Source of the DNA: Candidatus Kerfeldbacteria bacterium
GTDB lineage: Bacteria > Patescibacteriota > Patescibacteriia > SBBC01 > CAIJZX01
DNA length: 61,890 bases
Direction of reading: 5' to 3'
Assembly: GCA_903825245.1 (NCBI GenBank)
Contig: CAIJZX010000029.1
Coordinates: 1 to 61,890 of the forward strand
In this document: positions 1 to 12,092 of the stretch, piece by piece
Numbering within the stretch: the first letter of the stretch is position 1
Layout of the letters: every line of letters begins with the position of its first letter
Translations under genes and position numbers: made by a program
Notes under the pieces: model-generated
Told to the model about the DNA's origin: nothing
What the model saw: the letters and a program-made list of their open reading frames with translations, nothing else
The model's database searches: none

Positions 1-2298
1 AAACTTGCCGGCTTCAATCTTCGAGACGTTGAGGAATTGGTTGATCAGCCGGATCATACGCTGCGATTCGCCGAGCAAATCGACGAGTATTTTTTGGTGT
101 TCCGGTTTAATTTTACCGAAATCCCCTTGTGTCATCATCGACAAGTATCCCATGATGCCCGTCATCGGCGTCCGCAATTGGTGCGAGGCGATTGATACGA
201 ATTCCGATTTCGCCCGGTCGAGTTCTTGCAAGTGTTTGTTGGCGTCTTCCAGCTGATCGTTCGTTTTGCGAATTCTATCGAAGAGCGTGATGTTTCGAGC
301 GACAACGCCGAGTTCATCAGCCATCGATTGCAAGGTTTCGATTTCGCGCTGGGAAATTTGCGCTCGCTCGCGTTTCGCCCCGACCTCAATCACGCCGATA
401 ACTTTTTGCTCGGACACAATCGGCACGAGAATCATGGTCCGAATGCCGATCGCCTTCTGCATCGCATTGGCAATGAGCTTCGGAATCGGCGGCGACAACA
501 CCTCTGCCATACTGTTTGAAAATCGAACTTCACCAGTATTGATGACATCATATGCTAGCGTATGTTGGCTTTGATTCGTTAGGTCTGTTGTGTACGTCGA
601 AACTTGCTTCGGTAACAATTTCATCGCTTTCGTTGTCAACGGTGTTTCGGTTACGGCGCGCGCGCGAAGCGTTTTCCCGTCGTCATCGAGTAAAATAAGA
701 ATCGCGCCTAAGAAACCGAGCTCCGTCGCAACAGCGTTAGCAATATTTTGTACGACCTTACCAAAATCAAGCGTACGGGTAATGTCCTTCGTAATCGTTT
801 GCAGGGTTTGCAACGACACGTTCCGATCGCGCAATTCTTTTGTTGCGTCGTCTACTTTTACTTTTAGATCTTCGCTGAACTCGCGGACTTCTTCGTACAA
901 GCTCGCTTTTTGAATCGCTGACCCGATTTGTGGCGCGAGGACATCAATCAACTGCGTATCCTCGTTCGAGAACGAATCGCCGGAGAGTTTTGGTCCAAGC
1001 GTTAAGACGGCAACGAGATGATTTTCCGAGAAAATTGGCGCAACCAGGGCAACACCAAGACGTTCAAACTCTGCTTTCGAAGCAATTTCCTTATCGCGAT
1101 CCGGTCCTTCCGGGGTATCTTCAATTTTTCGTTCTAACGCTTCGAGTAATGATAGGTGTTGGTGGTCGCGGACGAAACGAATAAGCGGGCTATCATTTGC
1201 AATAACAATATCTGTCTTAGGATAAACGTCCTCAGCGGTCACCGAAAACTTCGTCGTTTTGCCTTGTTTATCTTGGGTGCGCAGTAATATCAAGCTATTT
1301 TTTACTTTGAGACCTTGCGTCAGTTCTTTTTCAAGATCATCGAGCAGTTTTTGGAGATCGAGTTCTATTGAAATAATTGAACTTAGGTTTTGTAGTAGTT
1401 TTGTATATTCAATTTTTGCTTGAAAAAAGACCTTATCGGTAGTTTTTGACAATAATCTTTTTAACGGGTCTAAGCCAGTAACAACAAGTATGGCAATTAC
1501 TATTGAAATTCCAGTTCTAGCGCTAGAAGAGCCATTAAAAAATTGTGCAGAGAGTAATAATACAGAAATAAACAACAATGCTACTAATGTCACTAGAATA
1601 CCGTATATCAGTGACCTAGTAAGGACAACCCTAATATCGAGTAGCCTATGCCGTATGATCGCATAAAAAGTGAAGCCTACCCAAATTAATGAGCTTGGAC
1701 TATCAAGGAAGGCGAGATTTGGAAAACCGATTGATGTAAACAATACGCCAGCAGTTATAGCCAGAAGACCATATCCAACCATCCCGAATAAAGTGTATCG
1801 TAGTTGCTCTCTTAAAACCCCATGCGAATTTTTATAATATCTATTCGTAATAAGTACCACATAAATGAATGTAAAAAGTTGGGCTACCAACATCACATCG
1901 AACCATGGTCCGGACACACCCTTAAATACGATTGGGGATATTCTATGGATATTAGTTAAAAATCCTGGCAAAAATGTAATAAGAAAAACAAAAAGGCCAA
2001 GAATAATAAATGGTACTATTTTCTTTAGTGAAACAGATCTGCCTTCTACAAAGTACTGAACCCATATAATTCCTGCACAAGTCAAAGACACTCCAATTCC
2101 CCATATTGGTGGGAGTATTTGGGTCAATCCAGTCAATCGTAATAGAATATTTAAAACTCCAATCAAGGAAGACAATATGGCAATAACAAAAAACCATTGA
2201 TTAGAGATGTTTCTACTATTTCTCTTCAACGCAAGTATTCCAAGAAAAGCATTCGAAACCGCAGCTATCGACATTATTATTAATGCTGCTTGGTACAT
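1..2298 (-). CDS. Sensor histidine kinase: N-terminal 7TM (HisKA_7TM-like) domain, extra TM helices, two GAF-like domains, HisKA; 3' end runs off the window
   Basis: Not in the ORF track because it is truncated. Hand translation from ATG at 2298 (MYQAALIIMSIAAVSNAFLG...) is open to base 1. It contains hydrophobic helices ending FYAIIRHRLLDI, GAF-like segments (LVAPIFSENHLVAVLTLGPK; ILVPIVSEQKVIGVIEVG) and the H-box ELDRAKSEFVSIASHQLRTP. Confidence 0.9.
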   Translation of the reverse strand, partial: MYQAALIIMSIAAVSNAFLGILALKRNSRNISNQWFFVIAILSSLIGVLNILLRLTGLTQILPPIWGIGVSLTCAGIIWVQYFVEGRSVSLKKIVPFIILGLFVFLITFLPGFLTNIHRISPIVFKGVSGPWFDVMLVAQLFTFIYVVLITNRYYKNSHGVLREQLRYTLFGMVGYGLLAITAGVLFTSIGFPNLAFLDSPSSLIWVGFTFYAIIRHRLLDIRVVLTRSLIYGILVTLVALLFISVLLLSAQFFNGSSSARTGISIVIAILVVTGLDPLKRLLSKTTDKVFFQAKIEYTKLLQNLSSIISIELDLQKLLDDLEKELTQGLKVKNSLILLRTQDKQGKTTKFSVTAEDVYPKTDIVIANDSPLIRFVRDHQHLSLLEALERKIEDTPEGPDRDKEIASKAEFERLGVALVAPIFSENHLVAVLTLGPKLSGDSFSNEDTQLIDVLAPQIGSAIQKASLYEEVREFSEDLKVKVDDATKELRDRNVSLQTLQTITKDITRTLDFGKVVQNIANAVATELGFLGAILILLDDDGKTLRARAVTETPLTTKAMKLLPKQVSTYTTDLTNQSQHTLAYDVINTGEVRFSNSMAEVLSPPIPKLIANAMQKAIGIRTMILVPIVSEQKVIGVIEVGAKRERAQISQREIETLQSMADELGVVARNITLFDRIRKTNDQLEDANKHLQELDRAKSEFVSIASHQLRTPMTGIMGYLSMMTQGDFGKIKPEHQKILVDLLGESQRMIRLINQFLNVSKIEAGKF

Positions 2299-2305
2299 GA
2301 TTATT

Positions 2306-3517
2306 CTACTCCTTGATGGTTTTAAAGAATTCGATTACTTTATTTACGTCACCCTCTGTGTGTTGTGATGTAAAGTTAAAGCGCACACGACTTTCACCCC
2401 ATGGTACTGCGGGATACCTTACTACGGAAGCCATGATCCCGGCTATTGCCAATTCCTTCTCTACTTCGATGGATTTATTGTCATCACCAAGCATTACAAG
2501 CATAACTGGAGCGTTACCTCCAAGCACCTCAAACCCTAAATCAGCTATTCCGTGTTTAAATTGTTTGGCTAATAATATTATTTTTTTTCTGTCTTCAGAA
2601 GACTGTTTCACTAACTTAATTGATTCATTAACGGCTGCCGAAAGTATCGGCGGCAACGGCGCCGATAATATGCTTGTTTTTGATGCGACACGGATATAAT
2701 CAATCAAGTCATGATTACCGGCAACGAACCCCCCAAAAACCCCAAAGGCTTTTGTCATAGTGCCCATATAGAAATCCACATCTTTAATATTTTGATCAAA
2801 ATATTCGGGGGTACCGCCTCCATTCTCGCCTAAAACCCCAATAGCATCCGCATCATCAAGCCACAGCATAGCTGAATATCTTTTCTTTAGTTCAATAATT
2901 CTAGGGAGAGGCAATATACTACCATCTGTTGTAAACACTCCCTGTGTAATAATTAATTTTCTTTCCGTTTTACAATTTTTTAAAGCTTTTTCCAATTCGA
3001 CCATGTCATTATGTTTATATACAACCTTTTCACATTTCGCTAGTCTAATCGCATCATGTATACTTCCATGATTACTTTTGTCACTAAAAACCGTTATCTC
3101 ATCTCGTTTAGGATCACGTCCCGACATTCCCGGGATGTTAATCGGATTTATTATTGTGGGTAAGGCTCCAATATTAGCCATATAACCAGTTGAAAAAACT
3201 ATTGCGTCATCAGCCCCGATAAATGCTGCAAGGGTTTTTTCAAGTTCCTCGTGAATATCATGACTACCACCTAAAACTCTTGTCGAACCAGAGCTAATCC
3301 CATATTTCTTTAAAGCAGCAACTACTGCATCCTTAACCTTTTCATTATCTGACATCCCTAAATAATTATTTGAGGTAAAATTTAAAACCTCCTTGCCTCC
3401 TATTTGTACTTTTGATTTTGAACCAGATGTGTGAGAAATCGTTGGCTTTGGGAAAAGGCCAGCTTTCTTTATTATTTCTATAATAGCGGAGTAAACTGAG
3501 GTGGGAGAGCTATACAT
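2306..3517 (-). CDS. PLP-dependent alpha-oxoamine synthase family protein (BioF/Kbl/SPT/CqsA-like)
   Basis: Motifs NFTSNNYLG, FSTGYMANIG, NHGSI, GTMTKAFGVFGGF (PLP lysine), YPAVPWGESRVRF. Confidence 0.9.
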   Translation of the reverse strand: MYSSPTSVYSAIIEIIKKAGLFPKPTISHTSGSKSKVQIGGKEVLNFTSNNYLGMSDNEKVKDAVVAALKKYGISSGSTRVLGGSHDIHEELEKTLAAFIGADDAIVFSTGYMANIGALPTIINPINIPGMSGRDPKRDEITVFSDKSNHGSIHDAIRLAKCEKVVYKHNDMVELEKALKNCKTERKLIITQGVFTTDGSILPLPRIIELKKRYSAMLWLDDADAIGVLGENGGGTPEYFDQNIKDVDFYMGTMTKAFGVFGGFVAGNHDLIDYIRVASKTSILSAPLPPILSAAVNESIKLVKQSSEDRKKIILLAKQFKHGIADLGFEVLGGNAPVMLVMLGDDNKSIEVEKELAIAGIMASVVRYPAVPWGESRVRFNFTSQHTEGDVNKVIEFFKTIKE

Positions 3518-4367
3518 GTTTTTCGATAGGTTTATGGTTTGCTAAGTAATCTTTCTGCATCGCACGAAAATCAATTATAAGATTTTTGGTTATAGCACCA
3601 ACCGAACCCCCCAATATTAACTTATTATCAACTTGAGTTACTGGCATTATGTTCATTGATGTACTCGTAATGAAACACTCATCAGCAGTATATACTTCTT
3701 CCAAAGTGATATTATCCTCCAAATATTTATAGCCCGAATCGATTACTTCAAGTAATTTTATTCTTGTAACCCCATCTAATATATCGTTAATTTTTGCACT
3801 TTTTATAACTCCATCTTTCACAATAAAAAAGTTCGTTCTGGTACCTTCGGTTACAAATCCTTTACTATTGATCAGCAGACTATCCATTGCTCCCTGTTGC
3901 ACCGCCATCGAATATGCAACGTAGTTCAAGAGAGTATTAATTGATTTTGCCTTTGGAATAAATCTCTCGCCACGATATGTCACCAACTTTGCACCTTGAG
4001 AATAAATGGCATCCTTATAAAAGGTTAAGCCTAAATGGAAAATATATACATCTGAAGAAGTATTTTTCTCGGCATCCCCAAACATAATTATCCTAATTAA
4101 GCCATCTTTAATCTTATCGATTGAGCATTTCTTTTCTATCCATCCAGTTATATCGGTTTCAATATAACTATTGTTAATACCAAGTAGAGAGGCCGAATTC
4201 AAGAGTCTTTTAGCATGTAATTCTGGATAGAAAATCTTACCCTGTAGCACTTTTATTGACTCATATACACCATAATTAAACCATATCGCTTTATTCGAGA
4301 CGTGGACTGTTGCATCAGCGAAATTTAGTATTTCCCCATTACGAATTATTTTTTGATTATTATCCAT
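3510..4367 (-). CDS. Class IV (fold-type IV) PLP aminotransferase (IlvE/D-amino acid aminotransferase/PabC-like)
   Basis: YGVYESIK, KAKSIN (lysine), EGTRTNFFIV, ILDGVTR, ADECFITSTS; overlaps the next gene by 8 nt. Confidence 0.9.
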   Translation of the reverse strand: MDNNQKIIRNGEILNFADATVHVSNKAIWFNYGVYESIKVLQGKIFYPELHAKRLLNSASLLGINNSYIETDITGWIEKKCSIDKIKDGLIRIIMFGDAEKNTSSDVYIFHLGLTFYKDAIYSQGAKLVTYRGERFIPKAKSINTLLNYVAYSMAVQQGAMDSLLINSKGFVTEGTRTNFFIVKDGVIKSAKINDILDGVTRIKLLEVIDSGYKYLEDNITLEEVYTADECFITSTSMNIMPVTQVDNKLILGGSVGAITKNLIIDFRAMQKDYLANHKPIEKHV

Positions 4368-4428
4368 ATTTAATTTATCTCTATACCTAAACCGCTAGGC
4401 CAAGTAAGTTAGTATAGCATTAAAGCAT

Positions 4429-5106
4429 TCATTTCTTTCTCGAAATAATTAATACCGTTCCTCCAATTAAAAAACCACTAGGCAAAACGGCCAATAACGG
4501 ATTTGTAATAACTGCAAAGAAGGTTGCCCACAAATTTAATATAATTGCAGGAACACCGCCCACGACTATAGACGCTATTAGGATTGCTAGATTCTGTTTG
4601 TGTGGTCCATCAATCTTATTATATCTAATAATTAGCAATATTATTGCCAAAATGAAGAGGAACGCAATGGAAATTTGAAAAAAAGCAAACAATGGACCCG
4701 GAGTTAATATGCCAGGACTATTAGGCGTGATTTGATATGAAGAATATATTGTTTTTGTAAAGAAAGCCAGGCAAGAATAGATAATACCTATTGAAATAAA
4801 AAGTAGTTTATGTATTTTATCAAACCTAAAAATCGGATATGGATAAATAAAACTAAAATATATTAACGATAAAACGAAAATAATGGCAAATATAAAAATT
4901 GAGTTAACTGCTACGTTAATAAAAATACTTGGGTTAGTATATGAGGTTAGAGCATTTGAAATAACCCATAAACCGGTACTTATCACCATAATCGACATCA
5001 CTTTACGAATTTCGCTTTTCGAGTTTGTCACCCAAAAAAATACGCCGAGTATCAACTCCCCAATCCCCACCAAATACGTTAACGTCAGTAAAATATCTTT
5101 TGTCAT
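4429..5106 (-). CDS. Stand-alone HisKA_7TM-like membrane sensor domain protein (copy 4)
   Basis: About 7 hydrophobic helices. Start moved to the ATG at 5106 (MTKDILL), which overlaps the upstream TGA as ATGA. N-terminus LTYLVGIGELILGVFFWVTNSKSEIRKVM is shared with its neighbours. Confidence 0.8.
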   Translation of the reverse strand: MTKDILLTLTYLVGIGELILGVFFWVTNSKSEIRKVMSIMVISTGLWVISNALTSYTNPSIFINVAVNSIFIFAIIFVLSLIYFSFIYPYPIFRFDKIHKLLFISIGIIYSCLAFFTKTIYSSYQITPNSPGILTPGPLFAFFQISIAFLFILAIILLIIRYNKIDGPHKQNLAILIASIVVGGVPAIILNLWATFFAVITNPLLAVLPSGFLIGGTVLIISRKK

Positions 5107-5756
5107 TTCTTTCGTACGATATATGTTGTCGCCCCTAGCCAAACAATACTTGAAATCGGCCCATACAAGTAGTTATAGGGCACGTTTTCCATGAAGTGGA
5201 ATATTGCAAAGAACACACCTGGCAATCCGGCGATAAGCAATGAAAAAAAGATTATCATTGTGTTCTTTTTAGCTACACCTTCCAGTTTCGTTAATTTCCA
5301 TATAATTAACCCTAAACCCAAGAAATATAACAGGGCAAGGTAAAAATTGAACGCTGGAAAAATTGAACCTCCAGTTGTGTATCCAGCGTTATTTACAAGA
5401 TACATGTCCGCCACAACAACCCTTGTCCATAAAAGTAAGTAAGAAAAGAAAGCCCACGGAAGATATAGACCTAGCACATGTAGCCGATCGAAAGTAAATT
5501 TTCGATAAGGAAAAACAATGGCAAAGTGAACCATAGCCGTTAGTAACAGTGCGCCGAATACAAAAGGTAACACTCCAACCAATGAATACTCACTGTTTGT
5601 CATGGCGTTCGTTATCCCCCACCCTGCCGTCGCAAAAGCTAAGATCGCCATAACCCGTCGAATTTCACTCTTCGAATTCGTCGCCCAAAAGTAGATGGCG
5701 AGAATAAGTTCTCCGATACCAACCAAGTACGTTAATGCCAGTAGCAGTGTCTTCAT
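5103..5756 (-). CDS. Stand-alone HisKA_7TM-like membrane sensor domain protein (copy 3)
   Basis: Start at ATG 5756 (MKTLLL) with ATGA overlap; LTYLVGIGELILAIYFWATNSKSEIRRVM; ends WLGATTYIVRKK. Confidence 0.8.
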   Translation of the reverse strand: MKTLLLALTYLVGIGELILAIYFWATNSKSEIRRVMAILAFATAGWGITNAMTNSEYSLVGVLPFVFGALLLTAMVHFAIVFPYRKFTFDRLHVLGLYLPWAFFSYLLLWTRVVVADMYLVNNAGYTTGGSIFPAFNFYLALLYFLGLGLIIWKLTKLEGVAKKNTMIIFFSLLIAGLPGVFFAIFHFMENVPYNYLYGPISSIVWLGATTYIVRKK

Positions 5757-6427
5757 TTTCGCATGACTATGTAACTTGTTGTTCCCAACCAAATGATCGT
5801 CGAAATCGGTCCTATAAGTGGATAACTTCCGCCATTAGTAAAAATAGGCACAATAACATCTAAATAAATAGAAGGTAAACTACCTAAAAATAATGACAGC
5901 ATAACCCCTAATGTGTTCCGACGATGAATTCCGTCAGCCTTTTTATATTGCAACCAAAAAACTACGATGGAAATAAGAAAAACGATCAGGATGAAAAATG
6001 TATAAAAAGGATACAGCGGACCTCCCGACCATTTTCCTGAAACATTGGGGTTGAAAACTGATTGAGCAATACTTGGTTGATCTTTAACCAGAATTGCAGC
6101 AAACATGACCGATGGTATGTACATAAGTACATAATGTAATTTATCTAGACGTATCAGTGGATATGGATAAAGAAGGGCTAGATTAAACAACGCGGTAACC
6201 ATAAACGGCGCTAAAGAAAAAGTGAGGTTGTCTACGGATTTGATCACCTCGCTACTACCCGAATAGGACGTAAACGCATTCGCTACCACCCAAATTCCAG
6301 TGGCAAGAGAAAGAAAGGCCATTACCTTCCTGACTTCATTTTTCGAATTCGTTTTCCAAAAATAACCAGCCAGTAACAACTCTCCGAACCCAACCATATA
6401 CGTTAAGGTGATAAGAAATATTTTCAT
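5753..6427 (-). CDS. Stand-alone HisKA_7TM-like membrane sensor domain protein (copy 2)
   Basis: LTYMVGFGELLLAGYFWKTNSKNEVRKVM; ends WLGTTSYIVMRK; ATGA overlaps at both ends. Confidence 0.8.
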   Translation of the reverse strand: MKIFLITLTYMVGFGELLLAGYFWKTNSKNEVRKVMAFLSLATGIWVVANAFTSYSGSSEVIKSVDNLTFSLAPFMVTALFNLALLYPYPLIRLDKLHYVLMYIPSVMFAAILVKDQPSIAQSVFNPNVSGKWSGGPLYPFYTFFILIVFLISIVVFWLQYKKADGIHRRNTLGVMLSLFLGSLPSIYLDVIVPIFTNGGSYPLIGPISTIIWLGTTSYIVMRK

Positions 6428-7089
6428 TTCCGTGCCAAAACGTAAGTAGAAACGCTAAATAAAAGTAGTGCATGAAGACCGCCAATCGGAATCCTCGGAT
6501 GGCCGAGCGCCGGACGAATGACATCGAAGAACACCGCTAGTCCCGTCGTAACAAATAAGGTCAACACAAAGAGTCGAATCGAGCTTTGCGAAACGCCCTG
6601 CGCTAATGGAACTTTCTTCAGCAGTACTACAACACTAGCAATAAATAGGGTGCAGATAACTACCGGAAAGAGCCAAAAAAACAGGCCATACGTCTCATGA
6701 ATACCGCCGGAAACGAATTCGACGCTCTTCAGAAACGACGGATTGAGGAATATATAGGGCAAAAAGAACGCAATCGGCACGATCCAGAGCAGCGCATTTT
6801 TCACCGGAAGGCGTTTCGTCGGAAATGGAAAGAAGAGGCTAAACATCAGAATCATCGAAAACGTCCAGACGCCTCCGAAAAAACCAATCCGATCAAACAG
6901 AAGCGCAATTGAGGCGTCTTTTGTCGAAAAGAGTACTACTTGAGCCGTCATCATTATCGCCAAACCGACCAACACCCCGGAAAGATACAAGACCGAGTGG
7001 GAGCGTTGGTATTTCTTGACCATCCAAAACGCCGTGGCGATCGAAACCGCAATAAACACCGCGTAAATAGCGACGAGGAAGCTATTCAT
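6424..7089 (-). CDS. Stand-alone HisKA_7TM-like membrane sensor domain protein (copy 1, divergent)
   Basis: Same length and hydropathy pattern (FSLFFPFP, TYGLFFWLF, ends STYVLARK); more GC-rich than copies 2-4. Confidence 0.7.
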   Translation of the reverse strand: MNSFLVAIYAVFIAVSIATAFWMVKKYQRSHSVLYLSGVLVGLAIMMTAQVVLFSTKDASIALLFDRIGFFGGVWTFSMILMFSLFFPFPTKRLPVKNALLWIVPIAFFLPYIFLNPSFLKSVEFVSGGIHETYGLFFWLFPVVICTLFIASVVVLLKKVPLAQGVSQSSIRLFVLTLFVTTGLAVFFDVIRPALGHPRIPIGGLHALLLFSVSTYVLARK

Positions 7090-7286
7090 TGCGCATAGAC
7101 AATTTCCCGCTCCGGTTGTCCCGGGTGGGCAATAAAACTGATGTCACTACTTCTTTTTTTGTGATAACGCCTGAAAAGTCAGTCACGGCGAAGATGTATT
7201 AAAATACACCATGACTATAACAGAAAGACCGAAAAAATGCAAACTATACTGCTTTTAGCTGAAACCCACCAAAAATTGAAAACGCT

Positions 7287-8546
7287 TTACTGTTCTATGC
7301 CAAGAAATGTGTAAATAATTGAGCCAACCTTTACCTTGTTTGCCTCGGGCACTTTGCTATCCGCGGGTTCGCGCATTTCACCAACAACCTGGTTAAACAG
7401 AATCCGGGCTTTATTGGTTCGCAAATCTTGGATAACTACTTTCTTCGGTCCCAACCCATTATTTGTGGTAAAGATGGTAACCGGGACAAACCGGGATGTT
7501 GGGTCAAAGTGCTGCACCTCACCAGCAATGGTGATCTGACGATCACTGTTATGGGTAAAATTATGATACCACTCGCCGTTATTCTGGTAATAGTACCCCG
7601 CTAAATTGCGATCCAAGACGTCTGGATAATACTTAAGGATTGGGGTGATATTGGTAAAGGCAGAAGTCATCAGGTTAAAACGGACATATTGTGCGCCATA
7701 ATTATCGCTCGCCATATCACGCTTAAGAAAAATGACGCTTTGACCATCTGGTTCAAGCCATTGATACGTATATGTTAGCCCGGCATCACCGGTTGGCGAC
7801 TGAAAGTTCCGTTGAAGTTCTGTAAATGTCCCCGTTGATAAATCAACCATTCCTAAAACTTGCAAATTGAGTTCCTCTTGTGAATTAATTTGGATCAATA
7901 CCTTGGCATCAGACTGAAAATCTAAAACATCAATTTTGAGTGGAGCAACGTTACCAACGCCGAAGTCTTTTTGTTGAAGAGTTTTTGTTGAAAAAGTTTT
8001 TGTATCAAAAATGCGAAAGGAAAATACCATCGGACAAGGACCCTCTTTAACGACCGCACTACACGTAAGGTCAGTAGTAACTACATACGTACCGTCGGGA
8101 CTTTGTCGCGTTTTGATAAAAGGATTAGCGTCTGTTATTTGCTTGTCTGTCACCCGCACTGAGATAACCTTGCCCTGTTTATCGAGCGTCGTAATCGTGC
8201 CTATCGGCGCCGGCGTTATTGCAACAGAACTCTCTTTCTCTAAAAAATCAGTAATCGTCAATCCAGAAGGGGTAAACTTTGCTTGATCGGAATACATAAC
8301 AAGGTTTGAATCCGTAAATATTTTTCTTGGAGCTCCAGTCATTCCGTCTACACGATAGATGGTATTCCGACCGCGGGCATTTCCGGCAAGATCAAAGCCA
8401 GTGACCGATAAAGCCGAATAGTATGCCGAAAAATGAGTTTGGTTATTATTGATAATATTACCTAAATACCAGAAAGCTGTGCTACAAATAATGAAGAATA
8501 TGACGCTGACAACCGTTATATATGATGTACGTAATGTTCGATACAT
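7287..8546 (-). CDS. Membrane-anchored extracytoplasmic beta-propeller-like protein
   Basis: One N-terminal TM helix, then beta-rich repeats with SPDG/EPDG/DPTS turns (TolB/PD40-like). Confidence 0.6.
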   Translation of the reverse strand: MYRTLRTSYITVVSVIFFIICSTAFWYLGNIINNNQTHFSAYYSALSVTGFDLAGNARGRNTIYRVDGMTGAPRKIFTDSNLVMYSDQAKFTPSGLTITDFLEKESSVAITPAPIGTITTLDKQGKVISVRVTDKQITDANPFIKTRQSPDGTYVVTTDLTCSAVVKEGPCPMVFSFRIFDTKTFSTKTLQQKDFGVGNVAPLKIDVLDFQSDAKVLIQINSQEELNLQVLGMVDLSTGTFTELQRNFQSPTGDAGLTYTYQWLEPDGQSVIFLKRDMASDNYGAQYVRFNLMTSAFTNITPILKYYPDVLDRNLAGYYYQNNGEWYHNFTHNSDRQITIAGEVQHFDPTSRFVPVTIFTTNNGLGPKKVVIQDLRTNKARILFNQVVGEMREPADSKVPEANKVKVGSIIYTFLGIEQ

Positions 8547-8618
8547 AGTATAGAAAAATAAAAAGTGGGGTACTAAGAGTAAGAATACTCTGTTCCCCCA
8601 TGATTGAGAAGGTGCGAA

Positions 8619-9341
8619 TTAGAACTGTTTCATGTATGTCGGCTTGTAGGCCGTGTAGCCGCCCAGCTGATTCCACGCGAACGAGTGACGAGCAATCACG
8701 AAGGTTCCGTTGCGATCGACATTATTCGAGTCGATCAAATCCAGACCCCAACCGAGATTAGCCGCCACAATGGCACTATGTTCGCCAGGACTCAGATGCT
8801 GTATAACCCACCCAGTTTTCGCCTGGGTGATATCACAAGGTGTCATGTAACCGCTGTAGTCGTAACCACCACCAGGCAGCACCAGATGCCAGCCGTTTCC
8901 GATACCGTACGACGAACGGTACAGAACCAGATCGACGAAGAACTTGCAGTAGCCGCCGAGGTGACCACCACCATACGTCCCGTCGATACTTCCACGGTTA
9001 ACTGTCCCGCCAATGTAGCTGGTCATGACATTCAATGCAGTGTTATCACTGCGCACGTAGTCCCAGTCGCCGAGATGGATGCCCTTGTAGACGATAGTCG
9101 ACGACCCGGTCCGGTAGACGTTCAACGCATAGCATGCTTCACTAAACACGTTGTTACTCCAGTCCACACCGGTATACGTGGCATCCGGCGTTGCCACCGG
9201 CTTCTGGACGTGACTCGTGTCCGTAACTGCCTGGACGTCCGTTGCCGTCGGCTCAGTCATCTTGTTCACTTTCGAACAAGCGCCGAGAGACATGGCCAGC
9301 ATCATCATTGCTACGAGGCACTTCACCTGATTCGCCTTCAT
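8619..9341 (-). CDS. Lipoprotein with CHAP/NlpC-P60-like cysteine hydrolase domain
   Basis: Signal peptide with lipobox LGAC; Cys...His...acidic pattern GGYCKFFV / GEHSAIV / LIDSN; SD AAGGAG upstream. Confidence 0.7.
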   Translation of the reverse strand: MKANQVKCLVAMMMLAMSLGACSKVNKMTEPTATDVQAVTDTSHVQKPVATPDATYTGVDWSNNVFSEACYALNVYRTGSSTIVYKGIHLGDWDYVRSDNTALNVMTSYIGGTVNRGSIDGTYGGGHLGGYCKFFVDLVLYRSSYGIGNGWHLVLPGGGYDYSGYMTPCDITQAKTGWVIQHLSPGEHSAIVAANLGWGLDLIDSNNVDRNGTFVIARHSFAWNQLGGYTAYKPTYMKQF

Positions 9342-9749
9342 TGTGTACTCCTTGGCTTCTCCACACAGGGTGTGGGAGCGTCTGTACTTCGGGATTTTCG
9401 GCCTACGGCACTGCGTGGAGTGAATTGTCTTTCACCCCCTTTCGCGTACGTACTTTGTGAAGGATGCTCTGTGTAAAGCTTACTTAGGCACTACGTGTTT
9501 GGGCACCTCCTTTTCGATTTGTAAAGAACGATGAACCGTTGGCTTGCACAGGTTTGCGATCGGTATTTCCAGTGTTCACCGGAAATTCGACAACACAAAA
9601 CCGGCCTGATGCAGGATGTTTTCCTACACCGCCATCGTTTGCCTCACCTTAGCGAAGAACAAAACGGTGGCACGACCTTCTCCCCAAGAGGAGAAGAGCA
9701 AGCCACCGATTCGTACTTCTAGGGTACTCTTTTTTTGGGGAAAGTCAAG
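9220..9749. repeat. Direct repeat copy 1: promoter, long leader and first ~40 codons of the lipoprotein
   Basis: Aligns by eye with 11533-12092. Near-identical over 9220-9355 and 9529-9715, diverged between. Confidence 0.95.
9529..9715 (-). ncRNA. Candidate structured leader RNA (multibranch core), copy 1
   Basis: Closing stem GAATCGGTGGCTTGC / GCAAGCCAACGGTTC encloses four hairpins. It begins just after a TTGACT-N16-TACCCT promoter (9721-9748). Confidence 0.65.
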
Positions 9750-9773: not shown

Positions 9774-10913
9774 CTATTTCACTATCGCTGCGCGAATGAT
9801 ATTATTTACTGAATCGACATATTGGTTCTGTACTTTCATCATAGAGGAAATCGTTCTTGTAGAAATCCAGCCGACCTCTTGAAGTGGCGGAATATCAAGG
9901 AGAAGCTTTGTGCCGTCGGGTGACCAGACTGATTGCCCAAGATTTATATTCTCGGTGAATGGCGTGGCGGACAAAGTCGTTTCGTGTTGTGTTACTAAGT
10001 CAAGTCGAGTAAATACTCCCGCCTCTTGGCCAGAAATTTTCTTTACATAGATAACCGATTTACCATCAGGGCTCGGCAAACTCACTGGGCCATCTGACCA
10101 CGTGGTAATAGGATAATCAGTTGTAGTTGCCGTTTCAAGATGGTAGCTGTGTAGCCCTTGACCATCGAGCCAAAGCAGAATTGATTGTTGACCGCTATCT
10201 GGTGTTGTGGAAATAGCACTGTTCATGTAGATAGCACTGGAAATATTTTCTTTTATTTCCGAAGCTTTCCCGTTATCCGATCTATACCACGTAACACCTT
10301 CGGTCATATTTCCAATGACATATACTAAATGCTGCAAGTCATCGCTTGACCAAATAAAAGTAAATCCGTTTTTTGATGCAGGTAATGTTGTGGCAACATC
10401 AAGCACTGTTTGAACCGTTTTACTGGAAATACTCAGTTCCACGACAGATGTGATAACTCCTTCCGTTCCATCACTCGTCGAACTATTCGGATCAATAAGT
10501 TCAACAACTAAACTATTTTCATTGGCAGTCCAAAATACACTTCGTATTTGTTGTGATGCTGGAGTTGTATACAGTAACGTCAGTGTTTGTTCTGGATACT
10601 GCAACAGATACAGGGAACGATTATCTGTTGTGAGAATCGCTTCTTGTTTTTTTGAAGGCGCAAGATATTGAAGCGTTTTCACGAAGGACAACTTGCTCGC
10701 CGGAATACGTGTATATGCAACCCCGGTAGCAGCATTAATACGGTAATCGTTAGTCAAGAGGTCGCAATTACAAAAAGTGTTCAGCGTCGAAATAGTAGCT
10801 TGGCTACCCTTCGGTTTAGGTTTGTTTTGTAAATTCACATAGAAACATCCTACACCCACGATGAGCATGATAATAACCACAGCTGCAAATATTTTAGTCG
10901 GATAATTTTTCAT
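9774..10913 (-). CDS. Membrane-anchored TolB/PD40-like beta-propeller protein
   Basis: Start moved to ATG 10913 (MKNYPTK), 6 nt after a TATACT -10 box. TM helix, then WTANE/WSSDD/PSPDG/WSPDG repeats. Confidence 0.7.
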   Translation of the reverse strand: MKNYPTKIFAAVVIIMLIVGVGCFYVNLQNKPKPKGSQATISTLNTFCNCDLLTNDYRINAATGVAYTRIPASKLSFVKTLQYLAPSKKQEAILTTDNRSLYLLQYPEQTLTLLYTTPASQQIRSVFWTANENSLVVELIDPNSSTSDGTEGVITSVVELSISSKTVQTVLDVATTLPASKNGFTFIWSSDDLQHLVYVIGNMTEGVTWYRSDNGKASEIKENISSAIYMNSAISTTPDSGQQSILLWLDGQGLHSYHLETATTTDYPITTWSDGPVSLPSPDGKSVIYVKKISGQEAGVFTRLDLVTQHETTLSATPFTENINLGQSVWSPDGTKLLLDIPPLQEVGWISTRTISSMMKVQNQYVDSVNNIIRAAIVK

Positions 10914-10951
10914 GTATAGAGTATAATAAAATTCTACAATATTGTCGAAAG

Positions 10952-10988
10952 AAAAAGTGCTGGGTGAAGCTTGAGCATCACCCAGCAT
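10952..10988 (-). terminator. Intrinsic terminator after lipoprotein 2
   Basis: Minus strand TGCTGGGTGA-tgctcaagct-TCACCCAGCA followed by CTTTTT. Confidence 0.75.
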
Positions 10989-11000
10989 GAACGAGGAGGC

Positions 11001-11654
11001 CTAACCGCCAATGACCTGGTAAATAGTGTAACTGCCGCCAGAAGTCGATTCGAATTTGGCGTAAGTCACATAGTGGATTTCCAAGCCACCGAGAAAGTCC
11101 ATATTGCAGTCAATGACGTAAACGCCATTTCCGTCATTGGACCAGATGATCATGGTGTGGGGCCAACTTCCCCAACTGGCCTGGACGATCTGTCCACGCT
11201 GAGCGCCGTTGATCGGCATACCAGCAGGACCATAGCCAGGAATGTTAACATACTGGCCAGCTGCCCATCTCGACCACGACGTACTCGCGGGTAGGGAGGC
11301 GACGTTACGAGAAGCAACGAGAACAACGTGCTGTGCCCAGGTCTTGCAATTGTATCCGGACGGACGAGAAAGCTTGTTGAGTCCGCCGCCAAGCGCAACC
11401 ATTTCGGTATTTGCTTCCTGGCAAATCGCTTCGTTTCTCTGCGCCTGGGTAAGGCTCCGCCACCACTGCTGATTCGCAACAGTACCGCCGAAATTACCTG
11501 CCCCCGGCTTCTGAACGCCAGAAACGCTGGAATCCGTAACTGCCTGGACGTCCGTTGCCGTCGGCTCAGTCATCTTGTTCACTTTCGAACAAGCGCCGAG
11601 AGACATGGCCAGCATCATCATTGCTACGAGACACTTCACCTGATTCGCCTTCAT
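11001..11654 (-). CDS. Lipoprotein with CHAP/NlpC-P60-like cysteine hydrolase domain (paralog with divergent C-terminus)
   Basis: Start at ATG 11654; first ~40 aa identical to 8619..9341. Motifs GYNCKTWA / WPHTMII / VIDCN. Confidence 0.7.
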   Translation of the reverse strand: MKANQVKCLVAMMMLAMSLGACSKVNKMTEPTATDVQAVTDSSVSGVQKPGAGNFGGTVANQQWWRSLTQAQRNEAICQEANTEMVALGGGLNKLSRPSGYNCKTWAQHVVLVASRNVASLPASTSWSRWAAGQYVNIPGYGPAGMPINGAQRGQIVQASWGSWPHTMIIWSNDGNGVYVIDCNMDFLGGLEIHYVTYAKFESTSGGSYTIYQVIGG

Positions 11655-12092
11655 TGTGTACTCCTTGGGCTTCTCCACGCGGTGCGTGGGAGCGTCTGTA
11701 CTGCAGGATTTGCAGCCAATCGGCACTGCGTGGAGTGAATACTTATTCACCTCCCTTCGCGTGCGTATAACGTGAAGGATGCTATGGGATTAAGCATTTT
11801 CAGGTACTACGTGGTTGAACACCTCCTTATGATTGTCACGTAAATCTTTCGCCACGTGGCACTGTAATGAGCGATGAACCGTTGGCTTGCACAGGTTTGC
11901 GATCGGTATTTCCAGTGTTCACCGGAAATTCGACAACACAAAACCGGCCTGATGCAGGATGTTTTCCTACACCGCCATCGTTTGCTTCACCTTGGGTAAA
12001 ATCAAAACGGTGGCACGACCTTCTCCACAGAGGAAGAAGAGCAAGCCACCGATTCGTAACTACAGGATACTCCTTCGGAGGAAAATGTCAAG
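11533..12092. repeat. Direct repeat copy 2
   Basis: Matches 9220-9749; promoter TTGACA-N16-TATCCT at 12064-12091 (minus strand). Confidence 0.95.
11872..12058 (-). ncRNA. Candidate structured leader RNA, copy 2
   Basis: Same fold as 9529-9715; differences are limited to two hairpin tips and preserve pairing. Confidence 0.65.

Follow-up and report, generated by a model that had tools for sequence, protein, structure and literature searches.

Stand-alone HisKA_7TM genes in a Candidatus Kerfeldbacteria two-component operon: candidate accessory receptor subunits, partly within a hypervariable block of enzymes and kinase sensor

The stretch of DNA analysed here (the window) comprises 61,890 nucleotides (nt) at the start of contig C29 (CAIJZX010000029.1) of a Candidatus Kerfeldbacteria genome (assembly GCA_903825245.1). 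Its positions 4429-7089 hold four tandem genes, c1 to c4, each encoding a free-standing seven-transmembrane (7TM) module of the HisKA_7TM family, to which the N-terminal sensor domain of a histidine kinase encoded further downstream also belongs. We put the chance that c1-c4 are accessory receptor subunits of this 7TM-GAF kinase at about even. In the mechanism proposed, c1-c4 would be separate, kinase-less receptor subunits with a seven-helix fold like that of G-protein-coupled receptors (GPCRs), the N-terminus outside and the C-terminus inside the cell, and they would be located next to the 7TM domain of the kinase itself in the membrane, serving as accessory modules for sensing or tuning. 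The enzymes encoded between c4 and the kinase would make a lipid-like molecule of amino-ketone or acyl-amino-acid type that is detected by this receptor set. The whole would be a two-component system in which a hypervariable specificity block, made up of signal-type enzymes, the membrane sensor of the kinase and one group of the stand-alone modules (C-type, see below), is set in a constant frame. Whereas two-component systems normally have their sensor domain within the kinase, the sensor module also occurs here as a free-standing, translationally coupled gene family, part of which lies in a block that turns over within one genus. No description of this locus was found in the literature searched.

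All four genes lie on the minus strand and are read in the order c1 (6424-7089, 221 amino acids (aa)), c2 (5753-6427, 224 aa), c3 (5103-5756, 217 aa) and c4 (4429-5106, 225 aa), these lengths assuming ATG starts. As had been noted in the initial annotation of this DNA, every junction is an ATGA stop-start overlap, and all three could be confirmed, at 6427-6424 (c1/c2), 5756-5753 (c2/c3) and 5106-5103 (c3/c4) in the direction of reading. By a crude count, a 4-nt overlap is possible at about 117 of the 641 same-strand junctions of the source genome, so this type of overlap is itself ordinary; three consecutive ones are not. Among relatives, ATGA was found at 11 of 15 junctions between 7TM genes (12 of 15 if one gene of genome G006 starts at an internal Met that aligns with the other N-termini). 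A frameshift fusion across the ATGA overlaps was also considered and was rejected by inference, as seven helices without a linker helix would place the following module in the membrane with its topology inverted. The database call of c2 (P0001) begins at Met36 and yields 189 aa; we favour the ATGA start because the N-terminus is conserved. Six C-type database proteins in all (P0001, P0037, P0051, P0073, P0110 and P0112; 187-191 aa) start at profile position 36 and lack the 35 residues that are best conserved. The ATGA-overlap starts of C-type genes appear to be avoided by gene callers, and it should be noted for practical purposes that automatic gene calls tend to miss these overlapping starts.

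Against the Pfam model of HisKA_7TM (PF16927; gathering score 28.6 bits), c1, c2 and c3 scored 29.5, 44.1 and 29.5 bits, respectively, all above the cut-off; c4 scored 26.2 bits, just under it, and was matched by a profile of the paralogs at E 1e-107. Mutual identity among c2-c4 was 35-36%, that of c1 with these three was 20-24%, and the N-terminal domain of the kinase was ~21-22% identical to each of c1-c4. PF16927 describes a domain at the N-terminus of a histidine kinase. The array proteins end 2-3 residues after the seventh transmembrane helix (TM7), and the downstream gene at 1-2298 alone is fused. The earlier observation that the array proteins stop where the 7TM domain of the kinase continues was borne out by alignment: their RK or KK ends align with kinase residues ~215-218 (IRHR), at the end of TM7, after which the kinase goes on with LLDIRVV and two further TM helices. 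The N-terminal motif LTY(L/M)VG(I/F)GEL..(Y/F)FW.TNSK.E.R.VM is indeed common to c2-c4, and their cores do diverge, TM3, TM5 and the outer hairpin being the most variable. The similar C-termini that had been ascribed to these three copies were found in c2 and c3 (WLG.T.YIV.(R/K)K), whereas c4 fits this pattern loosely.

The AlphaFold2 (AF2) model of c2, built with 28 sequences, had a mean pLDDT (predicted local distance difference test) of 90.8 and showed seven helices with a beta-hairpin between TM4 and TM5. In the 28 proteins, 236 Lys and Arg residues fall in the inner loops versus 69 in the outer loops, and the topology is therefore N-out, C-in, the same orientation as the kinase requires. 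When the c2 model was compared with 48,161 chains by VIA-align, the best 50 matches were all of the GPCR fold (Z 14.8-17.1, root mean square deviation 2.9-3.7 Å, 193-221 of the 224 residues), with no transporter among these best 50. GPCR matches found by Foldseek in the PDB were weak (E ~1e-3), and no solved structure related by sequence could be identified (best E 0.68). The seven-helix arrangement of the model is that of eukaryotic GPCRs; however, sequence identity between them and c2 was 5-12% and G-protein machinery is absent. The similarity is one of fold and does not in itself imply homology or a common function. Among C-clade proteins, conservation was higher in TM1, TM2 and TM7 and on the cytoplasmic face than on the outer face and in TM3, TM5 and the hairpin (0.575 vs 0.49; Mann-Whitney p ~0.001). 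A complex prediction for kinase residues 1-290 together with c4 returned no answer (score 0.00) and weighs neither for nor against binding.

The genes that follow the array on the minus strand are closely packed. After a gap of 61 nt, c4 is followed by a gene for a class IV aminotransferase of branched-chain or D-amino-acid type (3510-4367; PF01063, 8.9e-42), which overlaps by 8 nt with that of an alpha-oxoamine synthase of the BioF/Kbl/serine-palmitoyltransferase type (2306-3517; class I/II aminotransferase fold, PF00155 at 2.5e-50). The kinase gene starts 7 nt past the synthase gene and runs off the window, positions 1-2298 encoding its first 766 residues (7TM domain, two TM helices, GAF, GAF and HisKA). 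The end of contig C31 is identical over 141 nt to window positions 1-141, which indicates that the two contigs join, and C31 (77209-78857) holds the rest of the kinase (the HATPase part) and a receiver-only response regulator (C31:77619-77209). Upstream of c1, the 197-nt intergenic region at 7090-7286 is likely to be the operon start; it has one promoter-like match on the minus strand (7243-7214), from a consensus scan only, and sites in the promoter and terminator scan were no commoner than in shuffled sequence. We propose that c1-c2-c3-c4, the class IV aminotransferase, the alpha-oxoamine synthase, the 7TM-GAF kinase and then the receiver-only regulator would form a single operon. The source genome (G000; 1.30 Mb, 42 contigs, estimated 100% complete) contains no HisKA_7TM modules beyond c1-c4 and the kinase, and the sequencing runs in which window DNA was found are lake-water metagenomes. 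In families f1 and f2, a 7TM-GAF kinase lies downstream on the same strand in all nine genomes with an array (G000, G002, G005, G006, G007, G008, G010, G011 and G017), and most intergenic gaps of these operons are ≤10 nt or overlapping. A search for loci with a narrow alignment retrieved one genome locus and 12 metagenome loci; with a broader alignment, no stretch conserved enough was found. Four distinct long metagenome loci (L036, L038, L040 and L042) have the same layout and end in a receiver-only regulator.

A tree was built from 28 stand-alone and 9 kinase-borne modules, and in it the kinase 7TM modules all fell into one clade (support 100/99), apart from the stand-alone proteins, which form four clades. 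Clade A consists of c1, G006_s1 and G011_s1 (100/99); clade B is present in seven genomes and missing from G000; clade C1 contains c2 and its counterparts in G002, G005 and G007; and clade C2 contains c3, c4 and seven others, c4 being sister to G006_s4, one of two C2 genes of G006 (92/96). The array order A-B-C1-C2 is fixed across genomes, whereas the content differs: A-C1-C2-C2 in G000, B-C1-C2 in G002 and G005, A-B-C2-C2 in G006, A-B-C2 in G011, B-C2 in G010 and G017, B in G008, and C1, a truncated remnant and then one divergent copy in G007. Copy number is thus not fixed but ranges from 1 to 4 among relatives. By sequence comparison, the array copies are ancient paralogs, and the variation in copy number reflects loss and old duplication of long-diverged genes and not recent amplification. 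The G007 locus (L027) has two further peculiarities: the remnant (2827-2910) is a C-type 7TM fragment with 28 matching residues in an 82-aa frame, placed after the C1 gene at a 4-nt overlap, and the kinase (5133-7965) is split into three open reading frames of 618, 91 and 196 aa. Either decay or assembly errors would account for this locus.

Two proposals about the copies had been made from the sequence, and they fared differently. That c1-c4 are intact, tightly coupled genes rather than debris is upheld by their open frames, by orthologs in 8 related genomes and in metagenome loci, by proportions of nonsynonymous differences (pN) well below those of synonymous ones (pS) and by the confident AF2 model of c2. 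Among c2-c4, pN was 0.16-0.22 in the N-terminal 40 codons and 0.42-0.44 overall, and pS was saturated (0.68-0.85, with 0.75-0.85 in the N-terminal 40 codons); ortholog pairs had pN of 0.11-0.43 and likewise saturated pS. No dN/dS value is given, because saturation of synonymous sites (pS 0.68-0.86) extended to all paralog and ortholog pairs, even to the B pair with its 81% identity. The second proposal, that the conserved gene ends could serve as substrates for expansion or swapping of the array by recombination, found no support. The paralogs are ancient, their ortholog clades keep a fixed order, and the longest exact nucleotide match between any two array paralogs is 11-13 nt. Together with the saturated pS, these short matches indicate that the N-terminal conservation is due to constraint at the protein level and not to homogenisation of sequence, and recent gene conversion through the conserved ends is ruled out.

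The genes between array and kinase encode small-molecule enzymes in the nine f1/f2 array genomes, and the set differs by genome. G000 has the aminotransferase and the alpha-oxoamine synthase described above, and G007 has an alpha-oxoamine synthase (37% identical to that of G000). Five genomes (G005, G006, G008, G010 and G011) have an N-acyl amino acid synthase of the FeeM or TIGR03694 type, accompanied in four of the five by a ThiF-like enzyme; the synthase of G005 scored 126.8 bits against TIGR03694 (cut-off 111.95). The cassette of G002 consists of a dehydrogenase of Glu/Leu type, a PaaK-like ligase and a ThiF-like enzyme, and that of G017 of a methyltransferase and small membrane proteins. 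The window synthase scored 356 bits against TIGR00858 (cut-off 426) and 327 against TIGR01825 (cut-off 535) and was below every NCBIfam equivalog cut-off; for this reason it is assigned to the BioF/Kbl/serine-palmitoyltransferase family and to no substrate. Neither an N-acyl synthase nor a ThiF-like enzyme was found in the window cassette. N-acyl synthases have reportedly been linked to PEP-CTERM systems in a paper of 2011. According to two reports, pairs of N-acyl synthase and ThiF make acyl-oxazolones in Proteobacteria and mycobacteria, the role of these lipids being unknown (PMC10404671; bioRxiv 10.1101/2020.06.11.147165). With the defence models of PADLOC, no match was obtained among the 8 window proteins tested (including c1-c4, the enzymes and the kinase); among the proteins of relatives, the ThiF-like ones alone matched, and then the generic E1 part of E1-E2 models only.

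The operon is a mosaic in both composition and identity. Mean GC content of the source genome is 49.3% (standard deviation 3.6% in 1-kb windows), and the deepest trough in the genome lies at ~1000-6400, covering c2-c4, both enzyme genes and about the first 440 codons of the kinase; the 1-kb window at 4001-5000 has 31.5% GC, the lowest of 2547. GC content at third codon positions (GC3) averages 0.52 in the long open reading frames of the genome. It is 0.55 in c1, a genome-typical composition, 0.36 in c2, 0.43 in c3, 0.30 in c4, 0.30 in the aminotransferase and 0.32 in the synthase gene, mostly 0.17-0.42 in kinase codons 1-440 and 0.40-0.75 thereafter. All eight relatives examined have low GC3 over the C genes, the cassette and the first 400 codons of the kinase, and the highest GC3 in the second half of the kinase, with A and B genes above the trough in most of them. 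Identity changes along the same lines. Between the kinases of G000 and the same-genus G002, it rises from 18% (residues 1-215) through 52%, 67% and 76% to 92% (residues 619-766); two housekeeping proteins compared between the same genomes show 78-81% identity, against 64-73% with other genera. Identity among C-type orthologs is 37-45%. In a second same-genus pair (G010 and G011), identity is 81% for B, 50% for C2, 27% for the N-acyl synthase and 31% for ThiF, and in the kinase it goes from 22-26% at the start to 82-90% later.

In a tree of 15 kinase 7TM domains under a site-heterogeneous model, the two sensors linked to an alpha-oxoamine synthase pair together (99/97), and three linked to an N-acyl synthase and ThiF form a group (98/97), which suggests that sensor and enzyme travel together. 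The enzyme families of the cassettes differ outright, beyond what divergence in place would produce, and hence the core must have been replaced. On sequence evidence, then, the A and B 7TM genes with the second GAF domain and transmitter of the kinase are the constant frame, the C-type genes, the cassette and the 7TM sensor of the kinase are the hypervariable core, and this core has evidently been replaced repeatedly between related species. The swapping unit is the larger block of C-type genes, cassette and sensor half of the kinase, and not the ends of single genes.

This layout resembles that of pherotype loci. In comQXP of Bacillus, agr of Staphylococcus and other polymorphic quorum-sensing loci, a variable block for signal making and membrane sensing, of lower GC, lies next to a conserved transmitter, and the locus studied here is comparable in its low-GC, hypervariable block of enzymes and sensor (kinase sensor 18-26% identical and transmitter 82-92% in the two same-genus pairs). 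It differs from comQXP and agr in that no peptide pheromone gene was seen and the enzymes point to lipid-like molecules, as well as in the extra stand-alone sensor paralogs, which are not known from those loci. CqsA/CqsS (NF005526) offers another parallel, as an enzyme of the alpha-oxoamine synthase family is encoded beside a membrane-embedded histidine kinase. However, the window synthase scored 165 bits against CqsA (cut-off 428) and higher against BioF, Kbl and serine palmitoyltransferase models, all below cut-off, and the sensor of the window kinase belongs to a different family from that of CqsS. The cassettes of relatives, with a TIGR03694-type synthase and often a ThiF-like enzyme, recall the acyltransferase associated with PEP-CTERM/exosortase (TIGR03694) and its kinase PrsK, as well as OxzAB and TyzABC, which are acyl-oxazolone pathways. 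The model of PrsK, the XrtA/PEP-CTERM kinase (TIGR02916), matched the window kinase weakly (29.7 bits, cut-off 300, E 2.4e-7) over residues 133-471, from TM region to GAF. A difference from the N-acyl and oxazolone systems is that no nitroreductase domain was seen. To our knowledge, no receptor is known for N-acyl or oxazolone lipids.

HisKA_7TM (PF16927) as the N-terminal input of kinases has the same seven helices and the same N-out, C-in topology as c1-c4. In its typical form it is nearly always fused to long proteins, whereas in the window it stands alone, in four copies whose clades lie apart from the kinase-borne modules. A search of 1.84 billion representative proteins with a profile of 28 proteins gave 7660 at E up to 1e-3. 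Of a set of 152 proteins (top hits of this search and 4 hits of a word-based protein search), 116 have the size of a stand-alone module (171-260 aa), 18 are kinases with two tandem 7TM modules and 4 are kinases with four. The best BLAST hits of the 116 stand-alone representatives were C2 for 38, A for 14, B for 13, C1 for 8 and other for 43. Kinases of the tandem type (for example P0005, P0012, P0027, P0134, P0024 and P0046) have several 7TM modules in series before one GAF or PAS histidine kinase; unlike the array, their modules are joined by an extra linker helix and resemble the kinase type. They look like independent internal duplications and not like fusions of the array. We also considered these fused kinases as a strict Rosetta stone for the array and rejected this, since none of their modules belongs to clade A, B or C.

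In an even sample across the phylum, HisKA_7TM was found in 156 of 401 genomes. The matches listed are nearly all in frames of 400-980 aa, and among them stand-alone frames occurred only in G000, G005, G030, G052 and G192 (60 matches were not listed). Some further arrangements of the family were seen outside the group. In L047 (G030, 6726-8980) and L033 (G035, 350-2644), a stand-alone gene from a different HisKA_7TM clade precedes an asparaginase-like gene and a gene of ~200 aa of no known family. In L051 (2243-10993; G081, from another Patescibacteria family), a methyltransferase and a FeeM-like N-acyl synthase are found with a 7TM kinase. G081 also has, divergent from this kinase group, two tandem proteins of 456 and 453 aa, which combine HisKA_7TM with ~230 aa of unknown sequence, and then a radical SAM/SPASM enzyme.

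The role of accessory subunits for c1-c4 is favoured because operon linkage to the kinase is obligatory within the family, because the proteins are homologous to a sensor domain, because their inner faces are conserved and their outer faces variable, and because multi-module kinases exist elsewhere. From these features, we infer an association with the kinase, a ligand and a signalling role for c1-c4. A number of points speak against this role. Contact between c1-c4 and the kinase is, as just said, something that we infer. The stand-alone clade is separate from the kinase 7TM domains (100/99), with ~21% identity to the domain of this very kinase, and the fused modules of the 2x and 4x kinases best resemble the kinase type and not A, B or C, so that these fusions lend support by analogy only. 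We know of no ligand for any HisKA_7TM domain. In the parts consulted, the papers that name HisKA_7TM do no more than list it among sensor domains, without a ligand. Two small clades carry the link between sensor type and enzyme, the other 10 kinase sensors being unresolved on very long branches, and low GC3 could partly result from fast evolution rather than transfer. Finally, the stand-alone form is rare in the phylum-wide sample, and in the Patescibacteria genomes G030 and G052 the stand-alone HisKA_7TM genes have no kinase within 8 kb, which implies that such proteins can work without an adjacent kinase.

These last genomes are among the reasons to consider that the stand-alone 7TM proteins act independently of the kinase, either as receptors for other partners or as membrane carriers or exporters of the lipid-like product of the enzymes, which we think somewhat unlikely. 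In G030 and G035, the gene adjoins an asparaginase-like gene and the ~200-aa gene instead, and the C-type genes of our group lie inside the hypervariable block with the enzymes. For an exporter there is a parallel in agr-type loci, whose variable part includes a membrane processing or export protein. However, a 7TM kinase follows in the same packed operon in 9 of 9 f1/f2 genomes and in each of the four long metagenome loci with clades A, B and C. The fold, moreover, is a receptor-type bundle, with no transporter among its best 50 structural matches, and the proteins are homologous to a sensor domain. Alternatively, they might be decoys or negative regulators, that is, kinase-less sensors that bind the ligand or the membrane domain of the kinase and thereby damp or gate signalling. 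They share family and topology with the kinase sensor but have no output domain, their cytoplasmic loops are conserved and, coming first in the operon, they would be made with the kinase, all of which would suit such a task. Nothing separates it from a positive co-receptor role; four diverged copies that persist as separate ortholog clades across genera exceed the needs of a simple damper, and we consider this explanation distinctly improbable.

Two further explanations fare much worse. In a single-gene version of the swapping proposal, the array might hold silent sensor cassettes in reserve for recombination with the kinase gene or among themselves, given the N-terminal motif common to c2-c4, the varying copy number among relatives and the truncated 7TM remnant directly after the C1 gene of G007. 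This is largely refuted and has very little probability left, because pS is saturated within the shared motif (0.75-0.85), exact matches between paralogs do not exceed 11-13 nt, the copies are ~21% identical to the kinase sensor and form a separate clade, and each of them has its own start and stop and orthologs in other genera. Decaying remnants of duplicated kinase genes are refuted and practically out of the question: c1-c4 do end exactly where the kinase 7TM domain ends, but their frames are intact with pN well below the saturated pS, confidence in the AF2 model is high, 116 proteins in the set of 152 have the size of a stand-alone module (171-260 aa), and the copies form clades of their own that are not nested among kinases.

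The accessory-subunit role can be taken one step further, to a modular split receptor in which detached subunits of GPCR fold and the 7TM kinase together would sense a lipid-type signal made by the cell itself, and in which the synthase, the variable subunits and the kinase sensor would move as a single cassette, so that every species would have a private channel. We regard this extension as unlikely. If true, it would be the first candidate for a pherotype-like system of communication or partner recognition in these ultra-small symbionts, and lipids of N-acyl-amino-acid, oxazolone or amino-ketone type, whose roles are unknown, would gain a candidate class of receptors. The accessory-subunit reading itself, if right, would provide a tractable case in which receptor specificity and signal chemistry are exchanged together, would suggest that bacteria with genomes of ~1 Mb devote several genes to private chemical sensing, and would offer candidate receptors for bacterial lipid amides and amino-ketones that now have none.

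Four DNA runs from one lake-water study gave short, low-depth contigs, mostly ≥99% alike, that are scattered along 12 kb and are too fragmentary to bear on copy number or gaps in cover. At positions 4860 and 7146, single low-depth contigs in three of the four runs match on one side and diverge on the other; these loose ends could come from relatives or strains with different neighbouring sequence, on thin evidence. Upstream of the array, a gene at 7287-8546 encodes a membrane-anchored protein of 419 aa with no match to a Pfam or NCBIfam family, and no tblastn match at E 1e-10 was found in the corresponding region of the same-genus relative. In several relatives, a gene of similar size with an N-terminal anchor precedes the 7TM array. 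Further upstream, a direct repeat of ~530 nt (9220-9749 vs 11533-12092) falls into four segments that are 82-99% identical, with 99% identity over the 136 nt at 9220-9355. Two lipoprotein genes (8619-9341 and 11001-11654) have their upstream leader and some 42 initial codons, for the signal peptide and lipobox, inside this repeat, and each of them adjoins a gene for a membrane-anchored protein of ~400 aa (7287-8546 and 9774-10988, respectively). Recent duplication or homogenisation of a promoter, leader and signal peptide would seem to account for the repeat.

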